Notes: generated from the letters alone by a model not told the origin. DNA of 64,000 nucleotides from an uncultured Clostridia bacterium (GCA_944383685.1 CALWQM010000015.1:57570-121569); one strand, 5' to 3'. Numbered from the stretch's first letter, positions 23,772 through 42,640 are shown. Program-made: numbers and translations.

Positions 23772-23868
23772 AATATAAATGGTAAAGTTAATAGTTTAGT
23801 TTAAAATTTATTTGAATTATAGTTATTTAAAAATGTTTAAACCATAATTTTAATTATATAGAGGAGAT

Positions 23869-24948
23869 ATGGATAATTACAAAAAAATTTTAATTTTTCT
23901 TTCAAAATTCGAACTTTCCAATAAGAAATTGGAAACTATTATGCAGATTGTTGAAGATAAAAACATAAAAAACATTGAAGAACTTTCAAATGACGGCGAC
24001 ATAATGGACAGTTTGTCTTCAACAGAATATCATGAAATCTTAAAAAATTGTGATGAAAGATTGCTGGCTTCAATGATAACTAATCTTGAAAAATCTAATG
24101 TTAAAGTGCTGACAAAAAATGATGAAGAATATCCAGAAAGTTTAATTGACCTTCCTGATGTTCCAATGATTTTGTTTGCAAAAGGAAATTTAGATTTATT
24201 GAAAGAAAAAGCTATTTCCATTGTTGGCACAAGAATGCCAACCAATTATGGAAGATTTGTGACAGAAAAATTTGCTGAAACACTGGCAAAGGCAGGGGTT
24301 GTTATTGTCAGTGGGCTTGCTTATGGAGTGGATGCAATTTCTCACAAAAAAGCATTGGAAGTTGGCGGAAAAACCATTGCAGTTTTAGGTGGCGGTTTCA
24401 ATCACATTTACCCAGAAGCACACACAAATCTTGCAAATGAAATTGCAGAAAAAGGGTTAATTCTAAGCGAATATGCACCATTTATTAAGCCTACAAAATT
24501 TTCCTTCCCAAGAAGAAACCGAATTATTGCAGGGCTTTCACTTGGAACACTTATAACAGAGGCAAGCAAGAAAAGTGGCACAATTCACACAAAAGAATAC
24601 GCACTTACGTATGGCAAAGATGTGTTCGCGGTTCCAGGAAATATCAATTCTCCAAAAAGCGAACTTACAAATATGCTTATTAAATCTGCACAAGCAGAGT
24701 GCGTTTTAAGTGGTAATGATATTTTGGAATATTATGGAATATCGACACAAAATGAGAAAAAGAAAATGATTTCCCTCAATTTTGAGGAGCAAACAATCAT
24801 AAACTTACTTCAAAACGGCGAGCAAGATTTTGATTATTTAGCAAAAAATTCCAATATTTCTGTAAATAATTTGAATAGTTATTTGACAACTTTGGAAATT
24901 CGTGGTTTAATTAAAAGAATGCCAGCGAAGACTTACATGTTAAATTAA
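23869..24948 (+). CDS. dprA: DNA processing protein DprA
   Basis: IVGTRMPTNYG...SGLAYGVDAISHKKAL Rossmann-like DprA core with a C-terminal winged-helix-like tail. Confidence 0.9.
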   Translation: MDNYKKILIFLSKFELSNKKLETIMQIVEDKNIKNIEELSNDGDIMDSLSSTEYHEILKNCDERLLASMITNLEKSNVKVLTKNDEEYPESLIDLPDVPMILFAKGNLDLLKEKAISIVGTRMPTNYGRFVTEKFAETLAKAGVVIVSGLAYGVDAISHKKALEVGGKTIAVLGGGFNHIYPEAHTNLANEIAEKGLILSEYAPFIKPTKFSFPRRNRIIAGLSLGTLITEASKKSGTIHTKEYALTYGKDVFAVPGNINSPKSELTNMLIKSAQAECVLSGNDILEYYGISTQNEKKKMISLNFEEQTIINLLQNGEQDFDYLAKNSNISVNNLNSYLTTLEIRGLIKRMPAKTYMLN

Positions 24949-24961
24949 AAAGGAGATTAAT

Positions 24962-27040
24962 TTGAAACTTGTTGTTATCGAAGCCCCAGCAAAAAGGGAA
25001 ACACTGAAAAAATATTTAGGACCTGGTTACGAAGTTTTTGCAACAAAAGGTCACATAAGAGATTTACCTGTTAAATCATTTGCTATTGATATAAATAATA
25101 ATTTTGAACCTCATTATGAAAATAAACCAGATAAAAAAGACCTTATTAACGAACTTAAACATAAGGCAGATAAAGCGGACCAAGTTTTAATCGCAACCGA
25201 CCCGGATAGAGAAGGGGAGGCTATTTCTTGGCACATTGCCCATGTTTTGGGACTTGACCCAAACAAAAAATGCCGTATACAGTTCAACGAAATTTCAAAA
25301 AATGCTGTTTTAAAAGCACTTGATAACCCAAGAGCCATTGACTTAAATTTGGTCAATGCCCAACAGGCACGCCGTGTTATGGATAGAATTGTGGGATACA
25401 AACTTTCACCAATTATATCAAAAAAAGTTGCGCCAAAACTTTCAGCAGGGAGGGTGCAGTCAGTTGCTTTGAAACTTGTGGTTGACAGAGAAAAAGAGAT
25501 TGAAAACTTTAAGCCAGAAGAATATTGGACTGTTACCGCTTTTCATGAAAAAGATAAGATTGCTTTTAAATCAACTCTCCAAACTTATAAAAATAAGAAG
25601 ATTAAAATTGCAAACAAGGAAGAAGTTGAAAAAGCTTTATCAGTTATTAAACAAAGTGATTTTATCGTTAGTTCTGTTAAGAAAAGTAAAACAAAATCTC
25701 ATGCACCTGCGCCATTCACAACAAGCACAATGCAACAAGATGCATTAAATAAACTTGGCATGAGCCTTAAAAGAACAACTCAATCAGCACAAGAACTTTA
25801 TGAGGGGGTTGAAGTTAAGGGTGAAGGTAAAATTGCGCTTATCACATATATAAGAACAGACTCCACAAGAGTTAGCGAAGATGCACAAAAGGCTTGTAGG
25901 CAATTTATTGAAGAAAAGTATGGCAAAAACTATCTTCCAGCAAAACCAAACATTTATGCAACAAAGAAAAATGCACAAGACGCGCATGAAGCAATAAGAC
26001 CTATTTCCATGCAAATAACACCAGAAATGGTGCAAGACAGTTTGTCAAAAGATAACTATAAACTTTATAAACTTATCTATGAAAGATTTTTGTCAAGCCA
26101 AATGAATGAAGCAGAATATAGCAACACTGTTATCAGCATTGATGCAAGTGACTATGGCTTCAAAGCAAATGGTAAAATACTTGAATTTCCAGGATACACT
26201 GCTGTTTATAAAGAATTTGTGGATGAAGATAAAGACAAAAAACAAGATGCATCAAAATTACCTCAAATTGAAGAAAACGAAAAATTGGAAGTTAAAGACA
26301 TCAAAGAAGAACAGAAATTCACAAAACCTCCTGTTCGTTACACAGAAGCAAGCCTTGTTAAAGCAATGGAAGAAAAGGGAATTGGGCGTCCTGCAACTTA
26401 TGCTGCAACTGTAACCATTTTAACCGCAAGAAATTATGCTGAAAAAGAAGGGAAATATCTTGTTCCAACTGAACTTGGAAGAAAAATCACCGAATACCTT
26501 GAAAAGTTTTTCAGCGGGGTTATCAACGTTAAATTCACTGCACACATGGAAAACCGCCTTGACGATATTGCAGAAGATAAAGATGATTGGCATGATGTTA
26601 TTAACAGTTTCTGGAATGGGTTTAAGGGACTTTTGGAAAAAGCAGATTCCTCATCTGTTTCCATGAAAAGTGAACCTATTGAAACTGATGTTGTCTGTGA
26701 TAAATGTGGGCATAAAATGCTTTTGAGAGAGGGAAGATTTGGCAAGTTCTTAGGCTGTTCAAATTTTCCTAAATGCAAAAACATTATGCCATACAAGACA
26801 GAAGAAGAAAAGAAACCTGTTTCAAAATGTCCTATGTGCGGAAAAAATGTTTATGCTCTTAAAACAAAAAGAGGAAAAACTTTCTATGCCTGTGAAGACA
26901 GAAATGGTTGCAATTTCATGAGTTGGGATATTCCAACAGGTGAGATGTGCCCAAAGTGCGGAAAATACCTTATAAAGAAAGGGAAAATCATAAAGTGTTC
27001 AAGTTGTGATTATAAGGTTGATAACAACAAGGAAAACTAA
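24962..27040 (+). CDS. topA: DNA topoisomerase I
   Basis: 692 aa. TTG start follows an AAGGAG SD. Toprim domain (ATDPDREGEAISWH) and C-terminal Cys4 zinc ribbons. Confidence 0.95.
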   Translation: MKLVVIEAPAKRETLKKYLGPGYEVFATKGHIRDLPVKSFAIDINNNFEPHYENKPDKKDLINELKHKADKADQVLIATDPDREGEAISWHIAHVLGLDPNKKCRIQFNEISKNAVLKALDNPRAIDLNLVNAQQARRVMDRIVGYKLSPIISKKVAPKLSAGRVQSVALKLVVDREKEIENFKPEEYWTVTAFHEKDKIAFKSTLQTYKNKKIKIANKEEVEKALSVIKQSDFIVSSVKKSKTKSHAPAPFTTSTMQQDALNKLGMSLKRTTQSAQELYEGVEVKGEGKIALITYIRTDSTRVSEDAQKACRQFIEEKYGKNYLPAKPNIYATKKNAQDAHEAIRPISMQITPEMVQDSLSKDNYKLYKLIYERFLSSQMNEAEYSNTVISIDASDYGFKANGKILEFPGYTAVYKEFVDEDKDKKQDASKLPQIEENEKLEVKDIKEEQKFTKPPVRYTEASLVKAMEEKGIGRPATYAATVTILTARNYAEKEGKYLVPTELGRKITEYLEKFFSGVINVKFTAHMENRLDDIAEDKDDWHDVINSFWNGFKGLLEKADSSSVSMKSEPIETDVVCDKCGHKMLLREGRFGKFLGCSNFPKCKNIMPYKTEEEKKPVSKCPMCGKNVYALKTKRGKTFYACEDRNGCNFMSWDIPTGEMCPKCGKYLIKKGKIIKCSSCDYKVDNNKEN

Positions 27041-27120
27041 ATTAACATTTAAAATTAATAATAAAATTCAATATTAATTTTGGTTTATTTAAAATAAAAT
27101 TTTGGTTTTGAGGTGAATAT

Positions 27121-28311
27121 TTGAAGTCTGTAAACTTAGATTTAAAATTAAACAAAAGACTTATTAAAATTGTTGGCGGTGGACTTACTGGGATTGAAAC
27201 TGCATATATTTGTGCAAAAAACGGATACAGGGTTCACATCTTTAACAAGCCTCAAAATGAACTCACATATTTTGACAAAGAAGAACCTTTTGCAAATATT
27301 TTGCAAGAGGAACTTTTTAATTTTTCAAGCCCTACATATTTAACAAGCCAAAGGATGGGCGAAAATATATTGAAACTTGATAAAAATTTTATTGGCCTTA
27401 TGCGTGAAAAACTTAAAGAATTTCCAAATGTTTCATATATTGAAAGCGAAATTGACGAATTAAATCCAAGAGAAATAACTTTGCTTGCAACAGGAAATAA
27501 CACCACAAACAAACTTTTAGATGATTTAACAAAATATATTGGCGAAAGAAAAATTCAGTATTATAGCCCTGGCGAAATTGCCTTTAAAAACATTAAAGAA
27601 GAAAATTTGTTTCATGATAAAGATAATAACTATCATTTAAATTTAACAGAAAGCGAATATGCCATATTAAAAAACAAGATGTGTAAATTTTTAAATGATT
27701 ATGAAGTTAACAATCTTTTGGGTCAACAAATAAGCGGGGAAAGTCTTGCAAGAAATGAAGCATTAAGAACAGCAATATTTAGACCGATATATAATGAAAA
27801 TTGCAAAGCTTATGCCTCGCTTAAATTGCGAAAACATGAAGATATTTATTATTTAACTGAATTTTTCACAGCCCTTTCAAATGAGGAACAAAAGGAAATT
27901 TTCAGTGGTATATCTGCTCTTGACGGTGCAGAATTTGTAAACTTTGGAAAAATATATAAAAGGACTTATCTTTCAAGTGCAATGTGCGTAAACAACTTTT
28001 TACAATTTAAAAATGAAGAAAACTTTTTTGTCTGTGGCGGACTTTTAGGGGTGGAAGGTGTTATGGAAAGCCTGCTCACCGCAAATTACGTGGCTTATAA
28101 CCTTATGAACATGGCAGAGGGAAAGCCTTTGCAAGAAATTACCAATTTTTCATGCACAAAACTTCTAATAGATAAATTATTACAAAAAAATGTGTTAAAT
28201 CATAGGCTTTTAAGTTTTGACTATGATATAATAAATGATGAGAATGGCAAAAATATAGATACTTCTGCCGTTCTTAAATTTAAAGAAAAATTTTATGGAA
28301 AGTATTTTTAA
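27121..28311 (+). CDS. Divergent TrmFO/Gid-like flavoprotein (probable loss of catalytic cysteines)
   Basis: TTG start follows a GAGGTG SD. VGGGLTGIETA dinucleotide-binding motif and FFVCGGLLGVEGVMES (compare FFAGQ.TGVEGYVES). Position after topA matches trmFO; see findings for the missing Cys motifs. Confidence 0.55.
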   Translation: MKSVNLDLKLNKRLIKIVGGGLTGIETAYICAKNGYRVHIFNKPQNELTYFDKEEPFANILQEELFNFSSPTYLTSQRMGENILKLDKNFIGLMREKLKEFPNVSYIESEIDELNPREITLLATGNNTTNKLLDDLTKYIGERKIQYYSPGEIAFKNIKEENLFHDKDNNYHLNLTESEYAILKNKMCKFLNDYEVNNLLGQQISGESLARNEALRTAIFRPIYNENCKAYASLKLRKHEDIYYLTEFFTALSNEEQKEIFSGISALDGAEFVNFGKIYKRTYLSSAMCVNNFLQFKNEENFFVCGGLLGVEGVMESLLTANYVAYNLMNMAEGKPLQEITNFSCTKLLIDKLLQKNVLNHRLLSFDYDIINDENGKNIDTSAVLKFKEKFYGKYF

Positions 28312-28381
28312 GGATAAAGTGCTTTAAACAAAACTTTTTCAAAAATAAAAATAATTTCAATTTATAAAAGTGAGGATAAGA

Positions 28382-29686
28382 ATGAACTATACACCAAAAC
28401 AAATTGTCAGCGAACTTGATAAATATATTGTGGGACAAGCAAAGGCAAAAAGGGCGGTTGCTGTTGCATTAAGAAATCGTTATCGCCGTTCTCATTTGCC
28501 AGAAGAAATAAGAGATGAAATAACACCAAAAAACATCATCATGAGTGGGCCAACAGGTGTTGGTAAAACAGAGATTGCAAGACGTCTTGCTAAACTTGTG
28601 GGCGCACCTTTTGTTAAAGTTGAAGCGACCAAATACACCGAAGTTGGATATGTTGGCCGTGATGTTGAAAGCATGGTAAGAGATTTGGTTGAAGTTGCTG
28701 TTAGAATGGTTAAGGATAAAAAGAAAAAAGATGTTGAAGATAAGGTTATGCCAATTGTTGAACAAAAACTTATTGATGCACTTTTCCAAAATAGACGTGT
28801 CACAACTTTGGAAGTTAAAAGAGAAGATTTGGAAAATGAACTTCACAGCAATAAATTTGAAGATGAAATTATTGAAGTTTCCGTGCTTGACAGCCCAAAA
28901 CCAATTATGGCATTTGGAAGTGGTGAAATCAATTTGGGCTCTATGTTCGACAGCCTTCAACCACCAAAGCACAAAAAGAAGAAGATGAGTGTGCGTCATG
29001 CCAGAGACCTCTTACTTCAAGAAGAAACAGAAAAAATCATTGATATGGATAATGTCAATGAAGAAGCCATTTCACTTGCAGAAGAACAAGGTATTATTTT
29101 CATTGATGAAATCGATAAAATTATTGGAAAAAGCCAAGCAACAAGCAGTGCTGACGTTTCAAGAGAGGGGGTTCAAAGAGATATTCTTCCAATTGTTGAA
29201 GGAAGCACTGTGCCAACCAAATATGGCAATGTTAAAACAGATTTCATTCTTTTCATCGCAGCAGGGGCTTTCCATTTGGCTAAAATGGAAGATATGATTC
29301 CAGAACTTCAAGGTCGTTTTCCAATTAGAGTCAGCCTTGAAAGTTTAACTCAAAAAGACTTCAAGCAAATATTAACAGCACCAAAAAATGCGGTAACCTT
29401 GCAATATGCCAACCTTTTGAAGGTTGATAATATTGACCTAAAATTCACTGATGATGCACTTGACGAAATTGCCACAATTGCTGCAAATGAAAACGAAATT
29501 GAAGATTTGGGAGCAAGACGTCTTCACACAATTATGGAATTGCTTTTGGAAGATATTTCTTTCAATGCAACTGGGGAACATCCAATGACAACAGTTGAGA
29601 TTGACAGAACTTATGTTCAAAAAGCTTATAAAGATAAAAGTAAGCGTGCTACCGAAAAAATTAAAATGGGCTTTAGGGCTTCTTAA
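28382..29686 (+). CDS. hslU: HslU (ClpY) AAA+ ATPase, without an adjacent hslV
   Basis: ATG at 28382 follows a [57 protein letters not shown] and [10 protein letters not shown] motifs. Confidence 0.85.
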
Positions 29687-29711
29687 TTTTTGCCAAACAA
29701 CAAAGTGTATA

Positions 29712-29725
29712 AATTTTAGCAAATT
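29712..29725. repeat. TAGC-centred palindromic motif, copy 4 (variant arms)
   Basis: AATTT-TAGC-AAATT lies between the hslU stop and the tcdA start. Confidence 0.3.
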
Positions 29726-29740
29726 AAATGTGAGGATTTG

Positions 29741-30427
29741 ATGTGGTCAGCAAGAACTGAATTGCTTATTGGTAAAGATAATTGTGAAAAATTGACAAAA
29801 GCACATGTAACTGTGGTTGGCGTAGGTGGTGTAGGCGGCTATGTTGCAGTTCTTTTGGCAAGGGCAGGGATTGGCAATTTAACATTAATAGATTTTGACA
29901 GAGTTGATGAAACAAACATAAATCGTCAAATTGTGGCAAGTCAAAGCACCATTGGAAAATTAAAAACAGAAGTTCTTAAAGTGATGATAAAATCAATTAA
30001 TCCTGGTTGCAACATAACCATATTTAGCGAAAGATTGACAGAAACAAATATAAAAGACATGATACAAAGCGAAGATAATTATGTTGTAGATTGCATTGAC
30101 AGTGTCAAAGATAAAGTTGCACTTTGCTCATATTGCTATTTTAATAAAATTAAAATCGTCTCAGCTATGGGTGCAGGAAACAGGTTCGATATTCCAAATT
30201 TCTATGTAACTGACGTATTTAAAACAAGTAATGATGGACTTGCAAAAGTTATGAGAAAAGCCTTAAAAGAAAAAGGTGTGAAAAATTTAGATGTTGTAAC
30301 ATCAAAAAGTGTTGCAGTTAAAACAAACACAAAAGAGATTGGAAGCATTTCTTATTATCCTTGTGCTTCTGCTTGTGTAATAAGTGCCTTTGTTGTCAAT
30401 AATCTAATTAATGATAAAACTAATTAA
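29741..30427 (+). CDS. tcdA: ThiF/MoeB-family E1-like enzyme, probable tRNA threonylcarbamoyladenosine dehydratase
   Basis: VTVVGVGGVGGYVAVLLARAGIGNLTLIDFDRVDETNINRQ and an overall size of ~229 aa fit TcdA/CsdL. Confidence 0.65.
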   Translation: MWSARTELLIGKDNCEKLTKAHVTVVGVGGVGGYVAVLLARAGIGNLTLIDFDRVDETNINRQIVASQSTIGKLKTEVLKVMIKSINPGCNITIFSERLTETNIKDMIQSEDNYVVDCIDSVKDKVALCSYCYFNKIKIVSAMGAGNRFDIPNFYVTDVFKTSNDGLAKVMRKALKEKGVKNLDVVTSKSVAVKTNTKEIGSISYYPCASACVISAFVVNNLINDKTN

Positions 30428-30445
30428 CATATCTAGGAGGAAAAT

Positions 30446-30754
30446 ATGGAAATTATTAACGAAAAAAACTTTAATGAAAAAATAAGTAAAGGGGTGGTTG
30501 TTGTTGACTTTTTTGCAAATTGGTGTGGACCATGCAGAATGATGGCTCCAATTCTTGAAGATGTTGCAAAGGAACTTGGCGAGAAAGTTAATGTCTATAA
30601 AGTTGATGTGGACGAAAGTGAAAACTTAGCAAGAAAATATGGAATCATGAGTATTCCTTCCATTTTCATCTTTAAAAATGGCGAAGTGGTAGATAAAACT
30701 GTTGGTCTTATGATGAAAGATGTTATGGTGGACAGAATAAAAAAGTTCTTATAA
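30446..30754 (+). CDS. trxA: Thioredoxin
   Basis: 102 aa with a WCGPC active site and an AGGAGG SD. Confidence 0.9.
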   Translation: MEIINEKNFNEKISKGVVVVDFFANWCGPCRMMAPILEDVAKELGEKVNVYKVDVDESENLARKYGIMSIPSIFIFKNGEVVDKTVGLMMKDVMVDRIKKFL

Positions 30755-30835
30755 ATTTCAATAGTTGAAAGCAAAATTAATAAAGATTATTTTTATAATT
30801 TTAATAATTTCAAATTGCTTTTCATGATTTAGGTA

Positions 30836-30864
30836 TTGACATTTAAGCTTTCTAGTGTTAAAAT
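30836..30864 (+). promoter_or_regulatory. Promoter of nifS-nifU
   Basis: TTGACA (30836..30841), 17-nt spacer, TGtTAAAAT (30856..30864). Confidence 0.6.
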
Positions 30865-30904
30865 TTAATTGAAAGATTAAAATAATCTATTAAAAGAGGA
30901 TAAA

Positions 30905-32077
30905 ATGGATAGAAAAATTTATTTAGATAATGCCTCAACAACTTATGTTTCATCAGAGGTTTTAAATGAAATGATGCCATGCTTTAATGCTCTTTATGGC
31001 AATGCTGGCTCATTACATAGCTTTGGAAGGTCTGCAATGGCAATAATTGACAAAGCACGTGACAGAGTTAAAGAGGGGATAAATGCAGCAAAAGCAACTG
31101 AAATTTATTTCACAAGCGGTGGAACAGAAGCTGATAATATGGCAATTTTGGGTGTTGCACATGCTTATTCAAACAAAGGTAAGCACATCATCACAAGCCA
31201 AATTGAACATCATGCAGTTTTAAATGCTTGCAAGGAACTTGAAAAAGAAGGCTTTGAAGTTACTTATCTTCCTGTTGACCAACATGGTCTTGTAAGTTTA
31301 CCAGACTTACTTGACGCAATAAGAAAAGATACCATTCTTATTTCAATTATGGCTGTTAACAACGAAGTTGGAACAATTCAAAACATCAAAACAATAGCTA
31401 AAATTGCTCATGATTATGACATAATTTTCCACACAGATGCAGTGCAAGCGATTGGTCAAATTAAAATCGATGTTCAAGACATGGAAATTGATTTGATGTC
31501 AATTTCAGCACATAAAATCCATGGCCCAAAAGGGGTGGGGGCTTTATATGTTAAATCTGGAATAAGATTTGACCCAATCACATTTGGAGGAAATCAAGAA
31601 AGAGGCAAACGTTCTGGCACTGAAAACGTTCCTGGAATAGCCGGGCTTGGAAAAGCAGTTGAAATTGCAACAAAAAATTATTTGATAACAAACAAGAAAC
31701 TTAAAAACATAAGAGATTATTTTCTTGATAAATTGGCTGAAAATGTTGAATATTACCAAATTAATGGCCATATGCATCAAAAATCAAATGCAATTCTCAA
31801 CATTTCATTCTATGGAATTGAAGGTGAATCACTTTTGATGCTTCTTGATTTAGCCGGCATTTGTGTTTCAACTGGTTCTGCATGCACTTCAAAAGTTTTA
31901 GAACCTTCACATGTTCTTAAAGCAATGAAAATACCTGATGACATAGCACAAGGTTCAATTAGATTTTCTTTTGGGACCAACATAAGTAAGGCAGATGTTG
32001 ATTATGTTGTTGAAGAACTTGCAAAAGCTGTAAATAAACTTAGAGCAATTTCACCAATTCAAGCAGGGAGGATTTAA
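30905..32077 (+). CDS. nifS: Cysteine desulfurase (NifS/IscS type)
   Basis: 390 aa with a SAHKIHGPKGVGALY PLP-Lys context and a GSACTS active-site Cys loop. Confidence 0.9.
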   Translation: MDRKIYLDNASTTYVSSEVLNEMMPCFNALYGNAGSLHSFGRSAMAIIDKARDRVKEGINAAKATEIYFTSGGTEADNMAILGVAHAYSNKGKHIITSQIEHHAVLNACKELEKEGFEVTYLPVDQHGLVSLPDLLDAIRKDTILISIMAVNNEVGTIQNIKTIAKIAHDYDIIFHTDAVQAIGQIKIDVQDMEIDLMSISAHKIHGPKGVGALYVKSGIRFDPITFGGNQERGKRSGTENVPGIAGLGKAVEIATKNYLITNKKLKNIRDYFLDKLAENVEYYQINGHMHQKSNAILNISFYGIEGESLLMLLDLAGICVSTGSACTSKVLEPSHVLKAMKIPDDIAQGSIRFSFGTNISKADVDYVVEELAKAVNKLRAISPIQAGRI

Positions 32078-32079
32078 TT

Positions 32080-32502
32080 ATGTATAATAGATTTATTATG
32101 GAAAGATTTCAAAATCCAAAAAATGCTGGGGGAATGCATGGAGCAAATGCAATTGGTGAAGTTAAAAACGATGGTTGCACAGATATAACAAGATTATATC
32201 TTAAAATTGATGACAATAATATGATTGAAAATGCAAGATTTAAAACCTTTGGCTGTATTACATCAATTGTATCTGCTGATGTGACATGTGACTTAGTTAA
32301 AGGAAAATCTATTGATGATATTTTGAAAATCACAAATTTAGATATTTTGAAGATTATGGGAGAAATTCCAGAAAATAAAATCAAATGTTCTATTATGGCA
32401 GAAGAATCAATTCGTGCTGCAATTGAAGACTTTTATAAACGCAGAGAAAAAGAAGCTAAAAAAGCGCTTAAAGCATCAAAATATAATGTTGAAGAAGAAT
32501 AA
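32080..32502 (+). CDS. nifU: Fe-S cluster assembly scaffold (NifU N-terminal/IscU type)
   Basis: 140 aa with three conserved Cys contexts: GCTD, FGCITS and KCSIMAEESI. Confidence 0.85.
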   Translation: MYNRFIMERFQNPKNAGGMHGANAIGEVKNDGCTDITRLYLKIDDNNMIENARFKTFGCITSIVSADVTCDLVKGKSIDDILKITNLDILKIMGEIPENKIKCSIMAEESIRAAIEDFYKRREKEAKKALKASKYNVEEE

Positions 32503-32556
32503 TAAAAAAAGTTATTTTTTGCCATAAAAATAATTTGATAAAATATTAAATAATTA

Positions 32557-32592
32557 AAAAAGCACATAAACCAATACTATGTGCTTTTTTAT
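32557..32592 (+). terminator. Intrinsic terminator after nifU
   Basis: AAAAGCACATA / TATGTGCTTTT stem, 9-nt loop, T-run. Confidence 0.7.
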
Positions 32593-32963
32593 ATTTCAAA
32601 TTTTTTGGGGTGGTAGTTTACTTAAAAATTTTCATACATAAAATTATTAATTATGTAATTTATACTGGCTGGTGGTATGGTTTAATTTTATATAATAAAT
32701 TTTGTTCTAAAATGCGTTCACATACACGGAATAATTAAACTTTTAAAATTTTCCTTGAATTTAACATTATTATACAAAGATGAAAATTTCATAGTAGTAT
32801 GCATAAATATACATAAATTTAGACTCAAATATTTTTTAAATTTAGTTAAATCTTGTTTTAAACTTACAGAAAGAATAAATAAAATGTTTATAAAAATTAT
32901 GTCAATCACATTAATAAAAAAGTTAGAAGAAAACATCAATAATATTTAATTATTATGAGCTAA

Positions 32964-33125
32964 GGTATTATGCGCATAATACCACAATATTTTGTTTAAA
33001 ATTATGTGATAATACACCATATTTTGAATATCTATTCGCAAAACCTGTCTTTTGCGAATAGATTGTAAACCACTTTTAATCATAATCACCCAATTTTTTA
33101 CATAAATAAGCCCACATTTTTTATT
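32964..33125. repeat. Repeat array flanking the candidate dif
   Basis: Perfect 20-bp palindrome GGTATTATGCGCATAATACC (32964..32983). Four same-orientation ~20-bp units, consensus roughly CATAATACCACAATATTTT: 32972..32993, 33006..33025, 33079..33099, 33100..33122. Confidence 0.5.
33030..33063. other. Candidate chromosome dimer resolution site (dif-like 14-6-14 perfect palindrome)
   Basis: ATCTATTCGCAAAA CCTGTC TTTTGCGAATAGAT. It is 530 and 330 nt from the nearest gene ends, has no flanking U-tract, and sits in the convergent strand-switch gap. Confidence 0.5.
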
Positions 33126-33377
33126 TAGTTTTAGAGCAAATTTAACCAAAAATCACATGACTTTTGAAGAATTTTTTCTTAATTTACCCTATAAAAATTT
33201 CGTATAAAAGCAGCAATTTTTATTTAAAATTTATTGCATAAAATTTACAAAATATAAATAATTATAAATTTATATTTGATCGCCCACTAAATTTGATTGT
33301 AAAATGACATGACATCTAGCCCACCCTGCACCCCATTTTTTAAAAAGGAGGTATTTATCCTAGAATTTAAATAAAAG

Positions 33378-33405
33378 AAAGATAAGTCTTTACTTATCTT
33401 TTTTT
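33378..33405. terminator. Bidirectional terminator at the IMPase gene stop
   Basis: AAAGATAAGT / ACTTATCTTT stem with T-runs on both strands. The stop codon lies in the loop. Confidence 0.55.
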
Positions 33406-34184
33406 GTCAATCCAAGATACTCATCTAACTCTGGACTAAATGAATAAAATCTTTCAAAATCTTCATTGTCAAAGTTATAATATTTTGCTCCTGCTTCTTT
33501 AACTAAAAGGTCGCCTGGCATATAGTCCCATTTGGTTCGTGCTGGTTCAATAAGAAAATCTATTGTTCCATTTGCAAGTAATGTGTAAACAACTCCGGAC
33601 GAATCTATTTTAAATTGCTTAGGAGAAACATAACATTGTTTTTCATATTCATATAATTTTTCATTTATATTTCTTATTTTTTCTGTCCATCTTGAAGGAC
33701 AACTGTTTATGCAATAGAAGGAAGAAGTAAGTTTAATGTCACATTTTCTTTTCAAGCACTTACCATTAAGATATGCACCATGCCCTAACACAGCCACATA
33801 CATAGAATTGTTGAGTTTTGGTTGATATATAACACTTAATTGCGTTTTCCCCTCGTCGTAAAAAGCAACTTGGATGCTATAAAAGAGTGCATTTCTTATA
33901 AAAAATGAAGTTCCATCTATTGGGTCAATTATCCAAGTTCTATTTGTTAAATCTGTCTTAGAACTTGTTTCTTCTGTAAGAAAGTTATCCCATGGAAACT
34001 GCTCTTTGATGCAAGAAATTATGTATTTTTCAGTGTTAACATCAATATTCGTCACCAAAGATTTGTCTGCTTTAATTTTAACATCTTTATGTTGATTTAA
34101 AATACATTTCTTATAAGCTTCTTTTAAAGTTTTCTGTAATAAATCTAATTCTTTTTTATATTTATAATTTTTATCTACAATCAT
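33390..34184 (-). CDS. Inositol monophosphatase family protein
   Basis: FLTEET, WIIDPIDGT and KWDYMPGDLLVKEAG motifs. Confidence 0.8.
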   Translation of the reverse strand: MIVDKNYKYKKELDLLQKTLKEAYKKCILNQHKDVKIKADKSLVTNIDVNTEKYIISCIKEQFPWDNFLTEETSSKTDLTNRTWIIDPIDGTSFFIRNALFYSIQVAFYDEGKTQLSVIYQPKLNNSMYVAVLGHGAYLNGKCLKRKCDIKLTSSFYCINSCPSRWTEKIRNINEKLYEYEKQCYVSPKQFKIDSSGVVYTLLANGTIDFLIEPARTKWDYMPGDLLVKEAGAKYYNFDNEDFERFYSFSPELDEYLGLTKKDK

Positions 34185-35089
34185 TTCTTTTTCCTTGATT
34201 TGTTTAATTTTTGAATAAATTTTTGTAATTCATTTTTTGTTGGCATTCCTTTTTGTGCTGACTTAATTTGAATCTTATAAGCAGAAGCATATTGTGCATT
34301 TTTTACAGCATCCTCAAAAGCATCGCCATTTGCTAAGTTTGCCACAAAATTACCACAAAAGGTGTCCCCTGCGCCTGTTGTGTCAACAACATTTTTAATT
34401 TTAACAGCATCAACACATATATTTTTAACACCATCATTAAAAATTAAACCTTTTTGTCCCAGAGTTGTGATAAGTTTATTAGGATATTTTTTAACTATTT
34501 CTTCAATATTATCACTGTTAAACACGATTTTTGTTTCTTTTTCATTTGCACAAATATATGATACCTTATCTATAAGTGCAATATTCTTATTGTCCTTAAT
34601 AGAAATTAAATCTGGTTTTGTTGGGGTTAAAATGGTCTTTATTTTATTTTCATAACAGAACTCTATTAAATTTTTAGTAAAATCATAAGAGGTTTTATTT
34701 TGCATAACAACATATTTTGATGATAAAATTACATTTTTAAACTCGTCTATTAAGTTTTTATCAAATAGTGTGATAATTTTTCCAACTCTTTCAATAGAAT
34801 TATCGCCTTTCGTTATTGTAATTTTCGCCAAGTCATTAACTTCATTTTGAGCAATTTTAGCAAAAACTTCAACATTGTTTTTACTGAAATTATCTTTGAC
34901 TAACTCACAATATTTGTCATCACCAAGGATGGTAACGATGCAAGTTTTTGCCCCAGCACGTGCAGCATCAACCGCCTGGTTTGCTCCTTTTCCACCAAAA
35001 TCTATCTCTGTTTTGTTCATGTTGGTGTCATAACAAGTCATATCAATGCTGCAACCACCAACCACACATACATCATACTTTTTCTTCAT
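34181..35089 (-). CDS. rbsK: Ribokinase/PfkB-family sugar kinase
   Basis: GGKGANQAV and DTTGAGDTF signatures; 4-nt overlap with the downstream IMPase gene. Confidence 0.75.
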   Translation of the reverse strand: MKKKYDVCVVGGCSIDMTCYDTNMNKTEIDFGGKGANQAVDAARAGAKTCIVTILGDDKYCELVKDNFSKNNVEVFAKIAQNEVNDLAKITITKGDNSIERVGKIITLFDKNLIDEFKNVILSSKYVVMQNKTSYDFTKNLIEFCYENKIKTILTPTKPDLISIKDNKNIALIDKVSYICANEKETKIVFNSDNIEEIVKKYPNKLITTLGQKGLIFNDGVKNICVDAVKIKNVVDTTGAGDTFCGNFVANLANGDAFEDAVKNAQYASAYKIQIKSAQKGMPTKNELQKFIQKLNKSRKKK

Positions 35090-35190
35090 GCTTTCACCTC
35101 AAATAGAAGATTTTCGATTGTTGAGAAAATAGTTTTATCTACTCATCAAATTTTTCATTTAACTTTGCAAAAATTTCTTATAAATTTCAT

Positions 35191-35571
35191 TTACACAAAC
35201 ATTGCAATTATAAAAAGTAAAGCCAATCCAAAGCAGAACACTATCTTACATATATTAATGATTTTATCTTTAAGAACTCTTTTTTTAAATTGTTTATTAT
35301 AAACAACCAAGTTGTCATCAAATTCTTGTGATGTTATGTTTTTTGTGTTGACCATTTCTGCTTTAAAATATTTAAAATCCTCTTTCAATTGCTCTTTAAA
35401 ATCTGTTACATAAAAATAAATTAAATGCCCTGCCCAGGACAAAGCTAAAAGGGTAAGCAAACTTAAAACGAAATAAGAAAACCCACCCCAAACTTCAATG
35501 AGCAAGGCAAATATAATACAAAGAACAATTATGCATGCACTAATTACATAGATAATATTGTTTTTTTTCAT
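35191..35571 (-). CDS. Hypothetical small membrane protein (3 TM)
   Basis: 126-aa ORF with two N-terminal and one C-terminal hydrophobic segments and a weak AAAGGAAA SD. No recognisable family. Confidence 0.5.
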   Translation of the reverse strand: MKKNNIIYVISACIIVLCIIFALLIEVWGGFSYFVLSLLTLLALSWAGHLIYFYVTDFKEQLKEDFKYFKAEMVNTKNITSQEFDDNLVVYNKQFKKRVLKDKIINICKIVFCFGLALLFIIAMFV

Positions 35572-35634
35572 GAAATTTCCTTTTGTGTCTTCATAAATAA
35601 TCTTATAAAAATTAAAGTAAACATATAAATTACA

Positions 35635-36141
35635 TTATAAATTGACAACTGAAAAGATGTAAAAGATTACAAGGATAACTGTTGCAACAACCCAACCAAC
35701 AAGCCACCAAACACTTCCACGTTTCATTGTGAAATAGAAGCTGAGCCAAATGCAGACAATGTATGCTAAAACTTCCCCTATACCTTGCATATAGACCATG
35801 ATGCTTGGGTTTGCAGTTTTGAAGATTAATCTCAAAATCATGGCAATAGCAATTAAGATTATTGCAAAATATGCAAAGCATTGTAAGATTCTGTTTGGTC
35901 CCCATTTAACAACTTTTTGACCATTTTCTCCATTTGACTGAGCTTTATTTTCTTTGGTCTTTTTCTTAAACAAAGATTTTTTTTCTTTTTTATTGTCTGT
36001 CTCAACAGATTCTACATTTTCATTAACACTATCTTCTGTTTTAATGATGCTTGTGTCATCAATGTTATCTTCACTGTTTGTTTTTTGTGAGATAACAATT
36101 TCTTCATTATTTTGACCTGTTTTCTTTTTCAACTTAAACAT
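35635..36141 (-). CDS. Hypothetical membrane protein with charged N-terminal region
   Basis: ATG at 36141 follows a GAGGTGG SD. About 85 aa are acidic/Lys-rich, then come 3-4 hydrophobic helices. No recognisable family. Confidence 0.5.
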   Translation of the reverse strand: MFKLKKKTGQNNEEIVISQKTNSEDNIDDTSIIKTEDSVNENVESVETDNKKEKKSLFKKKTKENKAQSNGENGQKVVKWGPNRILQCFAYFAIILIAIAMILRLIFKTANPSIMVYMQGIGEVLAYIVCIWLSFYFTMKRGSVWWLVGWVVATVILVIFYIFSVVNL

Positions 36142-36179
36142 AATCCACCTCAATAATTTATATGCTTAAAGTTTATTTA

Positions 36180-37763
36180 TTATTTAGCTGTCTCAACAAA
36201 CCTGCTTTCCCTTATAACATTAACTTTAATTTGCCCAGGATATTGCATTTCATTCTCAATTTTGTTTGCTATATCTTTTGCCATAAACATTGCTTGGTCA
36301 TCTGTAATTTCTTCTGGCTTAACAATAATACGAACTTCTCTGCCTGCTTGAACAGCAAAAGATTTTTCAACACCATCAAAACTGTTGGCAATTTCTTCAA
36401 GTTGTTGCAAACGTTTGATGTAGTTTTCAAAAGAGTCACGCCTTGCACCAGGTCTTGAACTTGAAATGGCATCTGCCACTTGAACAATAACAGCTTCGAT
36501 TGTTTTAAATTCAACATTAAAGTGATGTGCTTCGATGCAGTGAACAACTTCTTCGTTTTCACCATATTTTCTTGCAAGTTCAACACCAATTTGAACGTGT
36601 GTTCCTTCAAGTTCGTGGTCAAGAGCTTTTCCAACATCGTGTAAAAGGCCACCACGTTTAGCAATCTTAACATTTGCCCCCATTTCACTTGCAAGAAGCC
36701 CTGCAATAATTGAGGTTTCAATGGAATGTTTCAAAACATTTTGACCGTAACTTGTTCTATATTTCAATCTTCCCAAAACTTTAACAAGTTCAGGATTTAA
36801 GTTATAAATGCCAGTCTCATTGCAAGCATCTTCGCCTGCTTGTTTAATTGTTTTGTCAACATCACGTTGCATTTTTTCAACTATTTCTTCAATTCTTGTT
36901 GGATGAATTCTTCCATCTGCAATAAGTTTTTCAAGTGAAAGCCTTGCAACTTCTCTTCTTATTGGGTCAAAACCGGAAATTGTGATGCTTTCTGGTGTGT
37001 CGTCAACAATAAGTTCTACACCAGTTGCAGCTTCAATAGCACGAATGTTTCTTCCTTCTCTCCCAATAATTCTTCCTTTCATTTCATCATTAGGAAGCGA
37101 AACGACTGATATTGTCATTTCACTTGTGGTTTCAGTTGCACATTTTTGCAAAGCTTGTCCAATAATTTCTCTTGCTTTCTTTTCACCATTTTCTTTGGCT
37201 TCATCTTCAATTTGTTTAACAATAACAGCAGCTTCTTTTTGTGCTTGATTTTTCATGTTTAATATAAGCAAATCAACTGCTTCTTGTTTACTCATTTTAG
37301 CAACTTTTTCAATCTCTTCAAGAGTTTTTGCTTTAAGCTCATCAATTTCCTGTTTGCCCTTTTCGAGATTAGCTTTTAAAGATGCAAGTTCCTTCTTTTC
37401 TTCGTCAATTTGTTCATTTCTTTTATCAATAGAAAGTTCTTTTTTCTCAATAAATTCCTCTCTTTGATTTAATCTCTCTTCAAGTTTTGCAACTTCTTGA
37501 CGTCTTTCTTTGATTTCGGCCTCAACCTCATCTTTAATTTTTTGCACATTTTCCTTACTTTCTAGTTGTGCTTCTTTTTTAATAGTCTTAGCTTCTGCAT
37601 AAGCATCTTCAATTATTTTTATTGCATTTGATTTATTTTTTTGTATTTTTTTATTGGTTATAAGCTTTAAAACGATTACAGTTACTGCTCCACCAATAAT
37701 AAAACATGCGATTGCAACAATAGATGCGACAGCAGGAGAGACATTCAATAAAATATCTTCCAT
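36180..37763 (-). CDS. rny: Ribonuclease Y
   Basis: 527 aa with an N-terminal TM, coiled coil, KH domain (GRIIGREGRNIRA) and HD domain (LLHDVGKA). Confidence 0.95.
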   Translation of the reverse strand: MEDILLNVSPAVASIVAIACFIIGGAVTVIVLKLITNKKIQKNKSNAIKIIEDAYAEAKTIKKEAQLESKENVQKIKDEVEAEIKERRQEVAKLEERLNQREEFIEKKELSIDKRNEQIDEEKKELASLKANLEKGKQEIDELKAKTLEEIEKVAKMSKQEAVDLLILNMKNQAQKEAAVIVKQIEDEAKENGEKKAREIIGQALQKCATETTSEMTISVVSLPNDEMKGRIIGREGRNIRAIEAATGVELIVDDTPESITISGFDPIRREVARLSLEKLIADGRIHPTRIEEIVEKMQRDVDKTIKQAGEDACNETGIYNLNPELVKVLGRLKYRTSYGQNVLKHSIETSIIAGLLASEMGANVKIAKRGGLLHDVGKALDHELEGTHVQIGVELARKYGENEEVVHCIEAHHFNVEFKTIEAVIVQVADAISSSRPGARRDSFENYIKRLQQLEEIANSFDGVEKSFAVQAGREVRIIVKPEEITDDQAMFMAKDIANKIENEMQYPGQIKVNVIRESRFVETAK

Positions 37764-37829
37764 ATTCGCTTTTCCCCTTTAAGTGTATATTAATTAAAGT
37801 AAAACTTTAAATTTAATTCCACAATAATA

Positions 37830-37858
37830 AGTTTAAACTTTTTTTATTAAATTGTCAA
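37830..37858 (-). promoter_or_regulatory. Promoter of rny
   Basis: On the - strand: TTGACA (37858..37853), 17-nt spacer, TAAACT (37835..37830), then a ~65-nt leader with an SD. Confidence 0.5.
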
Positions 37859-37978
37859 ATAAATTATTACCTAAATAAAAAATAAATAACAGGCATTTTG
37901 CCATGTTATTTTTTAAATAATTTGGAAATATCAAAATGGTTAAAAAATTTATCAAAAATTATTTTAAAATGTAATTTA

Positions 37979-39133
<1,155 letters not shown>

Positions 39134-39177
39134 TTATCATTAATTAATTTGCATTAAATTTTTAAATAAAAATTTTC

Positions 39178-40233
39178 CTATTCAATAAACATTGCGTCAC
39201 CAAAACTGAAAAATCTATACTTACTGTCAACTGCATGTTTATAAAGTTTAAGTGTCTTATCAATATCCCCCACAAAAGCTGACACAAGCATTATCAATGT
39301 GCTTTCTGGTAAATGAAAATTAGTGATTAAAGCATCAACAATCTTAAATTTATATGGCGGATAAATGAAAATGCTTGTCTCTTTTTTAACTGGGCATAAG
39401 TTGCCAATTTCATCAACAGCACTTTCCAAAACTCTAACGGATGTTGTTCCAACAGCAACAACTCTTCTTCCTTCGATTTTTGCCTTATTTATCTTTTCAG
39501 CAACTTCCTTTGTCACCTCAATATGTTCACTGTGCATTTGGTGATTTTTGATATTATCTTCTTTTACAGGTCTAAATGTTCCAAGCCCAACATGTAAAAG
39601 GACTTCACAAATTTCTACTCCCATATTTTTCAATTTTTCAAGTAATTCTTTTGTGAAATGTAGCCCAGCAGTTGGTGCGGCACTTGACCCTTCATATTTT
39701 GCATAAACCGTTTGATATCTATCAGGGTTCTTTAATTTTTCCTTTATATATGGTGGAAGTGGAACTGAGCCAATTTCCATCAAATGTTCCTCAAAGGTTT
39801 TACTTAAAGAATATTCAAACTTAACAACACACGAGCCATAAGTTTCCTTTTTAAGAACAGTGCAAGAAATATTTTCGTTAAAAACAATCTTTGTTCCCTC
39901 ATCCAATCTTTTAAAAGGTCTGGCAATAACTTCCCATGTTGTTAAATCAATTCGCTTTTGTAAAAGTATTTCAATCTTTGCCCCTGTTTCTTTAAAACCA
40001 AACAATCTTGCTGGCAACACTTTTGTGTTATTGATAACAAGTATATCGCCTTTTTTTAGAAAATTAACTATATCTCTAAAATGGCAATCACAAACCTTTT
40101 CAGTTTTTCTGTTGTAACATAAAAGCCTTGAAGAATCTCTTGGCTCAACTGGTGTTTGAGCAATTTGTTCTTCTGGCAAATCATAATAATAAGTTGACCT
40201 TAACAGTGCCCTATCAACATTTTCTTCTTGCAT
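39178..40233 (-). CDS. queA: S-adenosylmethionine:tRNA ribosyltransferase-isomerase
   Basis: 351 aa with YDLPEEQIAQTP, AAPTAGLHFT and FFSFGDAMFI motifs. Confidence 0.95.
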   Translation of the reverse strand: MQEENVDRALLRSTYYYDLPEEQIAQTPVEPRDSSRLLCYNRKTEKVCDCHFRDIVNFLKKGDILVINNTKVLPARLFGFKETGAKIEILLQKRIDLTTWEVIARPFKRLDEGTKIVFNENISCTVLKKETYGSCVVKFEYSLSKTFEEHLMEIGSVPLPPYIKEKLKNPDRYQTVYAKYEGSSAAPTAGLHFTKELLEKLKNMGVEICEVLLHVGLGTFRPVKEDNIKNHQMHSEHIEVTKEVAEKINKAKIEGRRVVAVGTTSVRVLESAVDEIGNLCPVKKETSIFIYPPYKFKIVDALITNFHLPESTLIMLVSAFVGDIDKTLKLYKHAVDSKYRFFSFGDAMFIE

Positions 40234-40244
40234 AATATTCTCCG

Positions 40245-41258
40245 TTAATTTTTCTTGTTTTGCGATGGCACTTCAAGACCTAAATGTTTATATGCATTTT
40301 CAAGAACAACACGCCCTCTTGGAGTTCTTGCAATGAAGCCAAGTTGCAGTAAATATGGCTCATAAACATCTTCAATTGTGCCGGAATCTTCACCAATGGT
40401 GGCAGATAATGTGTCAAGTCCAACAGGCCCACCACCAAATTTATATATAATGCTTTCCAAAATCTTTCGATCAATAAAATCAAGTCCAAGTTCGTCAATT
40501 TCCATTTTGGCAAGTGCTTGGTCAGCAATTTCCTTGGTTATTTCACCACTTCCCAAAACTTCGGCATAGTCACGCACACGTTTAAGAAGTCTATTTGCAA
40601 TTCTTGGGGTCCCCCTTGAACGCCTTGCAATGTCCAAGCTTGCACTACTGTCAATGTTAATATTCAAAATATTGGCAGAACGTTCAATAATAACCTGCAA
40701 ATCTTTATCACTATAAAGTTCCAAACGGCAGATAACTCCAAATCTGTCACGAAGTGGGCTTGTAAGCATACCTGCCTTTGTGGTTGCACCAATAAGTGTG
40801 AAAGGTTGAATTTTTAAGCGCATATTTTTTGCGGATGGACCTTTTCCAACAATGAAATCAAGTGCAAAATCTTCCATGGCAGGATACAAAATTTCTTCAA
40901 CAGTTTTGTTAAGCCTGTGAATTTCATCAATAAAAAGCACGTCATTTTTGTTTAAGTTTGTAAGAATTGCCGCAAGGTCTGCTGCATGTTCGATTGCAGG
41001 CCCAGATGTGATTTTAATTTGTGAGCCAAGCTCCTTTGCAATGATATGTGATAAAGTGGTTTTCCCAAGTCCAGGTGGTCCATACAAAAGCACATGGTCA
41101 AGAGCATCTTTTCTTGATTTTGCAGCTTGAATATAAACTCTTAAACTTTCCTTAACCTTATCCTGCCCAACATATTGGTCAAGACTTGTTGGACGAAGCG
41201 AAGTTTCAATTTCAGCATCTGTCCAATTTTTTGTGCTTGTTATAAATCTATCTTCCAT
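40245..41258 (-). CDS. ruvB: Holliday junction branch migration ATPase RuvB
   Basis: [21 protein letters not shown] and FIDEIHRL motifs. Confidence 0.95.
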
Positions 41259-41270
41259 ACATACCTCTCA

Positions 41271-41328
41271 CTATATGTTGTGTAGTATTCATGCATACTA
41301 CAATATATATTGCGTCATAACACAATAA
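41271..41328. repeat. Palindromic intergenic repeat family, copy D
   Basis: CTATATGTTGTGTAGTATTCATGCATACTACAATATATATTGCGTCATAACACAATAA fills the ruvA-ruvB spacer. Confidence 0.5.
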
Positions 41329-41329
41329 T

Positions 41330-41935
41330 TTATCTTCCAAGTTGTCTCAAAACTTTAAGAATAATTTCCTCTGCTGTTGCTCCATCTCCGGCATTTGAAC
41401 GAGCAAGACGATAAGCATCATTTTTGTTAACACCCAAGTTAATTAATGTGTCAACTGCATCATTCAAAGCATTTTCATTAACAAAACTATCCAAATTATC
41501 TTTATAGTTAAACAAATTATTATCCATACCAGTTGCTGAGATTTTGTCTTTAAGCTCCAAGCAAATTCTTTCAGCAGTTTTTCTTCCAAGTCCTTTAACC
41601 TTGGATAAAAGGGTTACATCTTCTCTTGTGATTGCAATCACCAAATCGGAAAGTTTCATTCCTGAAAGCACACTTATTGCCATTTTAGGCCCAACTCCGG
41701 AAACAGTTATAAGCTTCATGAAAATTTGTTTTTCTTCTGCTGTTGCAAAGCCATAAAGAGCAACTCCATCTTCCTTAACATGCAAATATGTTAAAACTTT
41801 TGTGGTTTCATTCACATTTGGCAAAGCAACCAAAGTGTTATTAGAAATCAAAAGTTCATATCCCACCCCATTAACATCCATAACAAGATAGTTTTCGTAT
41901 TTTTCTTCAATAGTTCCAACTAAAAATGCAATCAT
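41330..41935 (-). CDS. ruvA: Holliday junction DNA helicase RuvA
   Basis: MIAFLVGTI...VNGVGYEL and tandem HhH (VSGVGPKMA, KGLGRKTAERI). Confidence 0.9.
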   Translation of the reverse strand: MIAFLVGTIEEKYENYLVMDVNGVGYELLISNNTLVALPNVNETTKVLTYLHVKEDGVALYGFATAEEKQIFMKLITVSGVGPKMAISVLSGMKLSDLVIAITREDVTLLSKVKGLGRKTAERICLELKDKISATGMDNNLFNYKDNLDSFVNENALNDAVDTLINLGVNKNDAYRLARSNAGDGATAEEIILKVLRQLGR

Positions 41936-41942
41936 AATTACC

Positions 41943-42431
41943 TCACATCATATTAAAGTTCAATCTAGGATTAATTTGACTATGGCAAATTGCAACAGCC
42001 AAAGCATCAGCTGCATCATCTGGTTTTGGAATGCTTTTAAGTCCAAGAACATTCTTAACCATAAACTGCATCTGCCTTTTTTCAGCATGTCCATTGCCTG
42101 TTAAAGCCTGTTTGATTTGAATTGGTGTATATTCAAAAGTCCTACCGCAATATTTTTGACTTGCAAGCACAATCACACCTCTTGCCTGAGCCACTTGAAT
42201 AACAGTTTTTTGATTCTTAAAATAGAAAAGTTCTTCAATGGCAACCTCATCTGGCTTATAGGTTTCAAAAATAACTCTTAAACTTTCGTCAATATGTTGC
42301 AGTCTAATTGGTAATGGGTCCTCTTTGGGAGTTTCAATAACTCCATAATCAACAACTTCATTATCTCTTTCTGTGTCAATAATACCATATCCCACAATGG
42401 CATAACCCGGGTCAATTCCTAAAATTCTCAT
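41943..42431 (-). CDS. ruvC: Crossover junction endodeoxyribonuclease RuvC
   Basis: MRILGIDPGYAIVGYGI..., EELFYFKN and DAADALAVAICH motifs. Confidence 0.9.
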   Translation of the reverse strand: MRILGIDPGYAIVGYGIIDTERDNEVVDYGVIETPKEDPLPIRLQHIDESLRVIFETYKPDEVAIEELFYFKNQKTVIQVAQARGVIVLASQKYCGRTFEYTPIQIKQALTGNGHAEKRQMQFMVKNVLGLKSIPKPDDAADALAVAICHSQINPRLNFNMM

Positions 42432-42437
42432 GCTATA

Positions 42438-42466
42438 AGTTTAGTTTATTTTAAGAAATTTGTCAA
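42438..42466 (-). promoter_or_regulatory. Promoter of ruvC-ruvA-ruvB-queA-tgt (apparently leaderless)
   Basis: On the - strand: TTGACA (42466..42461), 17-nt spacer, TAAACT (42443..42438), 6 nt (TATAGC), ATG (42431). No SD. Confidence 0.6.
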
Positions 42467-42640
42467 ATAAAATAAGCGGTATAAACCATCTTTCACAACA
42501 ACTTTATTATATCCATCCATACATATATATATTTGAATTATAACTCACCTAAGCATAAAATCACTTAATGCAGGAATTACTTCACATTAAGGATGAACAA
42601 AAATAAAAAGGGAATTTTATTTCCCCTTTTATTTTATAAT

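Follow-up and report, generated by a model that had tools for sequence, protein, structure and literature searches.

A candidate replication terminus in an uncultured Clostridia bacterium, with a symmetric dif-like site apparently used by integrase-less Microviridae

Described Xer systems and their comparison with the locus

Every circular chromosome is expected to have a terminus, dif sites are markers of terminus regions, and the genes of Bacillota are biased towards the leading strand. The single-recombinase Xer systems described so far are XerS, XerH, XerL and the archaeal XerA (PMC5357621, PMC9765430). The XerS/difSL and XerH/difH modules are recognised by a site that lies immediately upstream of the cognate xer gene (PMC5357621, PMC9765430), and difSL itself comprises 31 bp with an 11-nt centre and imperfect, unequal arms (PMC5357621). 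The XerL/dif system of Legionellales was found through the mobile element LME-1, and its recombination was shown experimentally (PMC9765430). Experiments have also shown that enterobacterial gokushoviruses exploit Xer recombination to integrate at the XerCD dif site, and the same work reported no gokushovirus prophages outside enterobacteria (PMC7062461). Earlier work has counted microvirus-like regions in Clostridia genomes (PMC9753089), and gut gokushoviruses are predicted from CRISPR spacers to infect Clostridiales (PMC10159846). The open-access literature yielded no description of a Clostridia microvirus integration site, no Clostridia linked to a single-recombinase Xer system of this kind, and no dif or Xer paper containing the arm sequence described below. 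Judged on these open-access papers, the terminus presented here is itself ordinary, while the type of site and recombinase and their use by microviruses look new.

The DNA analysed is a 64,000-nucleotide stretch of an uncultured Clostridia genome, hereafter the window. Two of its features are compared with the systems above.

33030..33063, no strand assigned: dif-like Xer site, ATCTATTCGCAAAA-CCTGTC-TTTTGCGAATAGAT, 34 bp
17226..18272, + strand: Xer-family tyrosine recombinase, 348 aa, the candidate enzyme, 14.8 kb from the site

The pair resembles XerS/difSL of streptococci and lactococci in having a single Xer-family recombinase of about 350 aa, for which XerS is the best NCBIfam model, in the location of the site at the strand and skew switch, and in the placement of the site directly upstream of xer in 37 listed relatives. 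The difSL arm ends, TTCCGAAAA, resemble TTCGCAAAA of the present site. In contrast, the full-length match of the protein to XerS scores 183.5 bits against a cutoff of 267 bits (NF003462), the site departs from the difSL format in its 6-nt centre and perfectly symmetric arms, the gene and the site are 14.8 kb apart in the window rather than adjacent, and the hosts are Clostridia. The best match to difSL in the window, 22/31, is at chance level. XerH/difH of Helicobacter and Campylobacter is alike in its single recombinase of similar size, its gene–site module, and a short centre enclosed by arms with GAAAA / TTTTC-like ends; the arm ends of difSL, difH and the site here read GAAAA or CAAAA against TTTTC or TTTTG. 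However, the window protein scores 47 bits to the XerH structure 5jjv, below XerD (69 bits), the phylum is another one, and the arm is AGTTATGAAAA in difH and CTATTCGCAAAA here. The likeness to XerL lies in a dif exposed by an integrating element that carries a mimic, in long uninterrupted inverted-repeat arms of perfect symmetry, and in a recombinase gene that can be far from dif; the host group is unrelated, and recombination is experimental there and deduced here.

The canonical XerCD (CodV/RipX) dif of Bacillus subtilis and most Bacillota shares the two arms and the 6-nt centre with the present site. The best matches in the window to the B. subtilis 28-mer and to E. coli dif, 19/28 each, equal those of shuffled sequences, and two dif candidates picked by eye (32636–32661 and 33355–33380) were dropped for this reason. 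The genes topA, trmFO and hslU are contiguous at 24962–29686, with neither codV/xerC nor hslV between them, unlike in Bacillus, where a codV/xerC gene lies between trmFO and hslU. This absence is consistent with the lack of a canonical XerC at that locus, and the genome may still hold a XerC/XerD pair elsewhere.

The 348-aa protein matches Pfam Phage_integrase (1e-33), and the XerC, XerD and XerA NCBIfam models score below XerS. Its nearest solved structures are XerD, XerA and XerH, and E. coli XerD (1a0p) aligns with it at every catalytic residue (R, K, H-x-x-R, H and Y), giving the intact catalytic set expected of the Xer-family recombinase of a dif site. The protein is most likely the enzyme of the dif-like site, at which it presumably acts. 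The putative system is like the single-recombinase Xer systems, yet it is not XerS, XerH or XerL. The names given to these proteins at NCBI are only integrase or tyrosine-type recombinase.

The closest parallels among elements that exploit Xer recombination are the enterogokushovirus prophages at E. coli XerCD dif (PMC7062461) and others such as CTX phage. Shared features are an integrase-less microvirus between one well-conserved host site and one variable, phage-derived site, a non-coding attP and low strain occupancy. Unlike their 28-bp XerC/XerD dif, the target here is a non-canonical, symmetric and presumably single-recombinase site of Clostridia.

Strand switch, skew and the gene-free gap

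The first-pass annotation had proposed a probable terminus at a convergent gene-strand switch in the longest gene-free gap of the window. The arms and the elements of the gap are as follows.

1..32502, + strand: putative left replichore arm end, by gene strand and GC skew
13097..14899: PadR-domain gene, the sole contrary ORF among 28 left of the gap
32503..33389, no strand assigned: gene-free gap of 887 bp, 21% GC, separating the converging nifU and inositol-monophosphatase genes
32555..32591, + strand: nifSU terminator hairpin, −14.6 kcal/mol, z −6.3, with an A run on one side and a U run on the other
32964..32983, no strand assigned: perfect 20-nt palindrome GGTATTATGCGCATAATACC, 46 nt left of the dif-like site
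33378..33401, − strand: probable inositol-monophosphatase terminator, −9.4 kcal/mol, z −2.4, with a U-rich tail
33390..64000, − strand: putative right replichore arm end, by gene strand and GC skew
56794..57663: pseudouridine synthase gene, the sole contrary ORF among 24 right of the gap

When ORFs of at least 100 aa were counted after removal of shadow ORFs, 27 of 28 lay on the + strand in 1–32502 and 23 of 24 on the − strand in 33390–64000. The earlier counts (28 of 29 on + and 26 of 28 on −) had taken in small genes. The convergent switch and the overall picture are thus upheld; of the two contrary genes that had been counted on the right, one clear case was found. The co-orientation runs about 7–8 kb past both window ends in sibling contigs. 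On the left, the + strand prevails for about 7 kb more in L143/L144, where the spoIIIA operon lies; on the right, the extension covers about 8 kb more in L145/L146. The visible span is therefore 64 kb, or about 80 kb with the sibling-contig extensions (about 15 kb).

Several other features were recorded on the right arm. Upstream of polA, a phage-like cluster with holins and a P22/SU10-type portal occupies 62722–64000 and continues in L145/L146 (2590–9966); it probably represents a small prophage or what is left of one. The genes pheS-pheT are preceded by a T-box leader (116.5 bits) at 56461–56697 (−), and a 1673-aa ORF at 42641–47662 (−) has no Pfam match at E ≤ 1e-5.

The GC skew is +0.165 in the left arm and −0.200 in the right, at a window GC of about 32%. 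The polarity, positive and then negative, is of the terminus type. The cumulative G−C curve of the 64-kb window reaches its maximum at 32704, with a plateau at 32494–33089. The dif-like site falls inside the plateau. At third codon positions the skew almost vanishes (+0.006 left, −0.043 right), and the + strand skews of the two contrary genes are weak (−0.044 and −0.099). Much of the skew therefore tracks coding orientation, so that it and the strand switch are not wholly independent signals; independent evidence for a terminus is required. Strand-skewed 7- and 8-mers were considered as FtsK/SpoIIIE guides, and many are fully skewed, a pattern uninterpretable at about 96% gene co-orientation over 64 kb. 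The window counts of the known guide motifs (GAGAAGGG 1:1, GGGCAGGG 3:0) are likewise uninformative.

As had been noted earlier, the gap is the longest gene-free stretch of the window (887 bp, against 761 bp for the next inter-ORF gap). It is flanked by nifS-nifU on the + strand and by genes for inositol monophosphatase and a PfkB kinase on the − strand. The longest ORF inside it encodes 73 aa, and gene callers left it without a gene in all eight empty-site sibling contigs that cover it in full. Rfam searches of the gap (gathering threshold and E ≤ 1) returned no family, with weak terminator-like matches on the nifU hairpin only; the window contains no tRNA, and promoter-like sites in the gap show no excess over shuffled sequence. 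The terminators that were said to bound the gap differ in strength. The one after nifU, placed before at 32557–32592, is a strong hairpin followed by a U run, which, with its A run, could act bidirectionally. The one after the inositol-monophosphatase gene, placed before at 33378–33405, is plausible and weaker.

The palindrome GGTATTATGCGCATAATACC is unique in the window even at three mismatches and present only in strains of the same species; an operator or an accessory site are possibilities. Directly left of the dif-like site, about 25 nt (window ~32990–33029) follow a loose ATAmTAC...AAATATT pattern across species, which is kept in the left flanks of L066, L077, L087, L106 and L113 while the other flanking DNA has diverged. 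This stretch could be an accessory sequence. Together, these elements account for a minor part of the 887 bp.

The dif-like site and its microvirus prophages

The site consists of two 14-nt, perfectly complementary arms (33030–33043 and 33050–33063) around the 6-nt centre CCTGTC (33044–33049), in keeping with the dif format of about 28–34 bp with two inverted arms and a short centre. As expected of dif, it is intergenic, present once in the window and located at the skew shift point; it is the single match in 64 kb even when three mismatches are allowed. The site is invariant across 11 strains, and the whole 34-mer is identical in four other species (L066, L077, L087 and L106), whose flanking proteins are 60–85% identical to those of the window and whose neighbour genes differ. 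The sequence is thus kept across species while the flanking genes vary, another property of dif.

An exact look-up of the NifS protein in public assemblies retrieved 10 sibling-strain contigs, in which the nifU–inositol-monophosphatase DNA is 96–99% identical to that of the window. In two of the 10 nifS places shown, L007 and L015 (source samples ERZ24773479 and SRR32392017), this gap is filled by Microviridae genes. The L007 prophage encodes a major capsid protein, a scaffold protein, an ORF5-type DNA-binding protein, a pilot protein, Rep and a holin-like protein; no recombinase is encoded in this gene set. The L015 contig ends within the scaffold gene. Alignment of empty and filled loci places the insertion point exactly at window 33030–33052, the 23-nt core that the site has in common with the microvirus attP. 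Copies of this core, ATCTATTCGCAAAACCTGTCTTT, at 12129 and 17491 bound a 5362-bp microvirus unit in L007. The attL of this unit runs from the host left arm through the centre into a degenerate phage arm (TTTGTCTTATG / TTTGTCTTATGTAT). Its attR joins a left arm brought by the phage to the centre and the host right arm, and so regenerates a perfect site. At the same insertion point, L015 has a different microvirus, whose other arm is TTTGTAAAATCG. A core repeat with one hybrid site and one regenerated perfect site is the signature of Xer-exploiting elements, and the microvirus shows the properties of this group: it has no recombinase of its own, it carries an attP mimic, and it is flanked by dif-derived repeats. 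Since the phage lacks a recombinase, a host enzyme must act.

Mimics of the site were also found in free microvirus genomes. The closest circular ones are bajarodmic virus 527 (PQ006699.1; VP1 78% identical) and Microvirus mar32 (MZ089778.1; VP1 75% identical), which carry AACTATTCGCAAAA-CCTGTG-TTTTAAAAGTGT and ATCTATGCGTAAAA-CCTGTC-TTTGTGAAATTG, respectively, each in the non-coding stretch after the Rep gene. The exact L007 attP has no match in IMG/VR, and a looser attP pattern matches five IMG/VR contigs. A 4.5-kb IMG/VR microvirus, L141, has the mimic AACTATTCGCAAAA-GCTGTG-TTTGTTGAACAA; in L138 the match lies inside an ORF and is probably due to chance. A microvirus genome binned into a Clostridia genome bin, L109 (CALBKX010000045.1, 5329 bp), is 58% (VP1) and 38% (Rep) identical to the L007 prophage and has a complete palindromic site at 5237–5260. 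In two IMG/VR tailed-phage fragments, L140 (2774–2810) and L142, the genes for the small and large terminase enclose a nearly complete site, GGACTATTCGCAAAACTTGTGTTTATCGAATAGTTAC, an odd spot for a dif mimic.

Taken together, the convergent switch, the skew polarity, the unique and conserved Xer-type site and its use by integrase-less phages support the reading of the locus as a probable terminus. The gap at 32.5–33.4 kb is very probably a terminus region containing a 34-bp dif-type site, served by an XerS-like enzyme and exploited by integrase-less Microviridae. The earlier claim that the two replichores meet at about 33 kb is well supported by the switch, the skew and the site, and we infer on this basis that the forks actually meet at the gap. 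In the proposed mechanism, the replichores of the host, an uncultured, spore-forming gut member of Clostridia, would converge on the gap, with the genes of each replichore co-oriented with replication. Two monomers of one Xer-family recombinase, most likely the XerS-like protein encoded at 17226–18272, would each occupy one of the identical 14-nt arms and carry out strand exchange over the 6-nt centre, and we infer that this recombination at 33030–33063 resolves chromosome dimers at division. The phages would carry a perfect copy of one arm and the centre next to a degenerate second arm, and their integration would leave one hybrid site and regenerate one perfect host site. Microviridae could lysogenise via the site because it is always present and the enzyme is host-encoded.

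The site family in Clostridia and competing readings

One genome per species was scanned with the pattern TTCGCAAAA-N6-TTTTGCGAA. It occurs in at least 120 species genomes, against about nine estimated by chance, with one site per matched stretch. The matches listed are almost all from Clostridia, including Christensenella, Catabacter, Oscillospiraceae, Lachnospiraceae, Defluviitaleaceae, Halanaerobiales and many genome bins. In the closed genome of Christensenella sp. Marseille-P2438 (LT700187.1), the site lies at about 2,270,631 of 2,560,186. In many of the matches listed, the arms extend to (A/T)CTATTCGCAAAA and TTTTGCGAATAG(A/T), and the centre is approximately S-Y-T-G-T-S.

A tblastn search with the window recombinase found a recombinase in the same 8-kb block at 60 of the 120 loci listed, and all 60 site-linked recombinases among these matches are transcribed away from the site. 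They fall into two classes. Among the matches listed, class A comprises 37 recombinases that are 45–60% identical to the window protein, at a median of about 400 bp from the site; all six that were tested score best on XerS, full length, with 175–196 bits. Class B comprises, among the matches listed, 23 XerC/XerA-like recombinases of about 300 aa with 27–33% identity, one of which passes the archaeal XerA cutoff. Their sites share the arm core TTCGCAAAA / TTTTGCGAA, have an AT-rich 6-nt centre and lie 3–870 bp upstream of the recombinase. Class B may represent a sister single-recombinase system in other Clostridia.

Class B loci (i): L020, L023, L025, L032, L043, L047, L055, L058, L075, L084, L092
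Class B loci (ii): L097, L103, L108, L110, L117, L118, L120, L122, L127, L128 and others

The orientation of the centre relative to the xer gene is inconsistent among the module loci. It counts against the dif-type reading that, in the window organism and its nearest relatives, the recombinase gene does not adjoin the site, unlike in the 37 listed module loci. The window has the order YgjP, SpoIVB, xer, twelve more + strand genes and then the site, and the relatives L040, L052, L114 and L134, compared with window 15075–18272, have the order YgjP, site, xer. From gene order, the site–xer module is apparently split in the lineage of the window. A half-site, CTTTGCGAA, at 17190 was considered as a relic operator and rejected, as 52 one-mismatch matches to a 9-mer in the window render it insignificant.

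The surroundings of the site in the relatives support a terminus to varying degrees. Of the 65 listed loci with 1.5 kb or more on each side, 43 have a terminus-type skew flip at the site and one has an origin-type flip. The directly flanking ORFs are convergent in 31 of the loci listed and divergent in two, and the same-strand cases are largely those in which xer is the first gene. Over the whole flanks of the 49 listed loci with at least 2 kb on each side, 14 are convergent, 3 divergent, 15 same-strand and 17 mixed. Hairpins between convergent genes could bias such flank counts. The terminus association in relatives is accordingly supporting and not decisive.

These data bear on three other readings of the locus. 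The switch might mark no more than a local convergent junction or one end of a large inversion, with the palindrome serving as a phage attachment site unrelated to dimer resolution. Only about 80 kb are seen, the skew is confounded with the coding strand, and 15 of the 49 listed relatives have same-strand flanks. In addition, spoIVB (15908–17071, +) and argR-recN (47944–50065, −), which form one contiguous cluster in B. subtilis, are on opposite arms here; this split points to rearrangement around the switch and suggests a past inversion across the terminus. We nevertheless regard a junction of this kind as improbable. Phages without an integrase need a host recombinase to act, and the site is kept in at least 120 species in linkage with an Xer-family gene. 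Terminus-type skew flips outnumber origin-type flips 43 to 1 among the matches listed, and a run of 23 of 24 consecutive genes against replication over at least 30 kb would be extreme for Bacillota, given their general gene bias.

It is also conceivable that the dif-type site is genuine and marks the point of dimer resolution, with forks usually meeting elsewhere in a broader terminus zone. Indeed, dif is reported to lie near termination sites and skew shift points without coinciding with them (PMC3025954), and the third-position skew is too weak to place the mutational switch precisely. Such an arrangement is nonetheless quite improbable here, as both the gene-orientation switch and the cumulative-skew maximum fall within 600 bp of the site. 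Reading 33030–33063 as an RNA element, a terminator or regulatory hairpin between convergent operons, would account for its 14-bp stem as RNA (−16.7 kcal/mol, z −7.0) and its position between convergent genes here and in 31 listed relatives. However, no U tract follows the stem on either strand, and both flanking operons have their own terminators nearer the stop codons. What is kept across orders is the arm sequence and not pairing alone, with a centre loosely S-Y-T-G-T-S, and phages integrate inside the palindrome, which lies upstream and not downstream of the recombinase gene in 60 listed loci. An RNA role is hardly credible on this evidence.

With the terminus and dif-type reading preferred, a wider proposal can be formulated, to which we would give slightly less than an even chance. 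Many Clostridia (Christensenella/Catabacter relatives, Oscillospiraceae, Lachnospiraceae, Defluviitaleaceae and others) may resolve chromosome dimers by a hitherto undescribed single-recombinase Xer system. Such a system would consist of a XerS-like recombinase of about 345 aa and a symmetric 34-bp site, (A/T)CTATTCGCAAAA-N6-TTTTGCGAATAG(A/T), in an ancestral site-then-gene module, and gut microviruses would exploit it via mimics of one arm plus the centre.

Locating the terminus orients the contig on its replicon and is otherwise routine. The site would provide a one-line signature for the terminus and dif in hundreds of genomes of uncultured gut Clostridia, useful for assembly checks and for growth-rate estimates from coverage. 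If the proposal is true, a further single-recombinase Xer system would stand beside XerS, XerH, XerL and XerA. A temperate life cycle in abundant gut microviruses that lack an integrase would likewise find an explanation, and particular viruses would be tied to their hosts.
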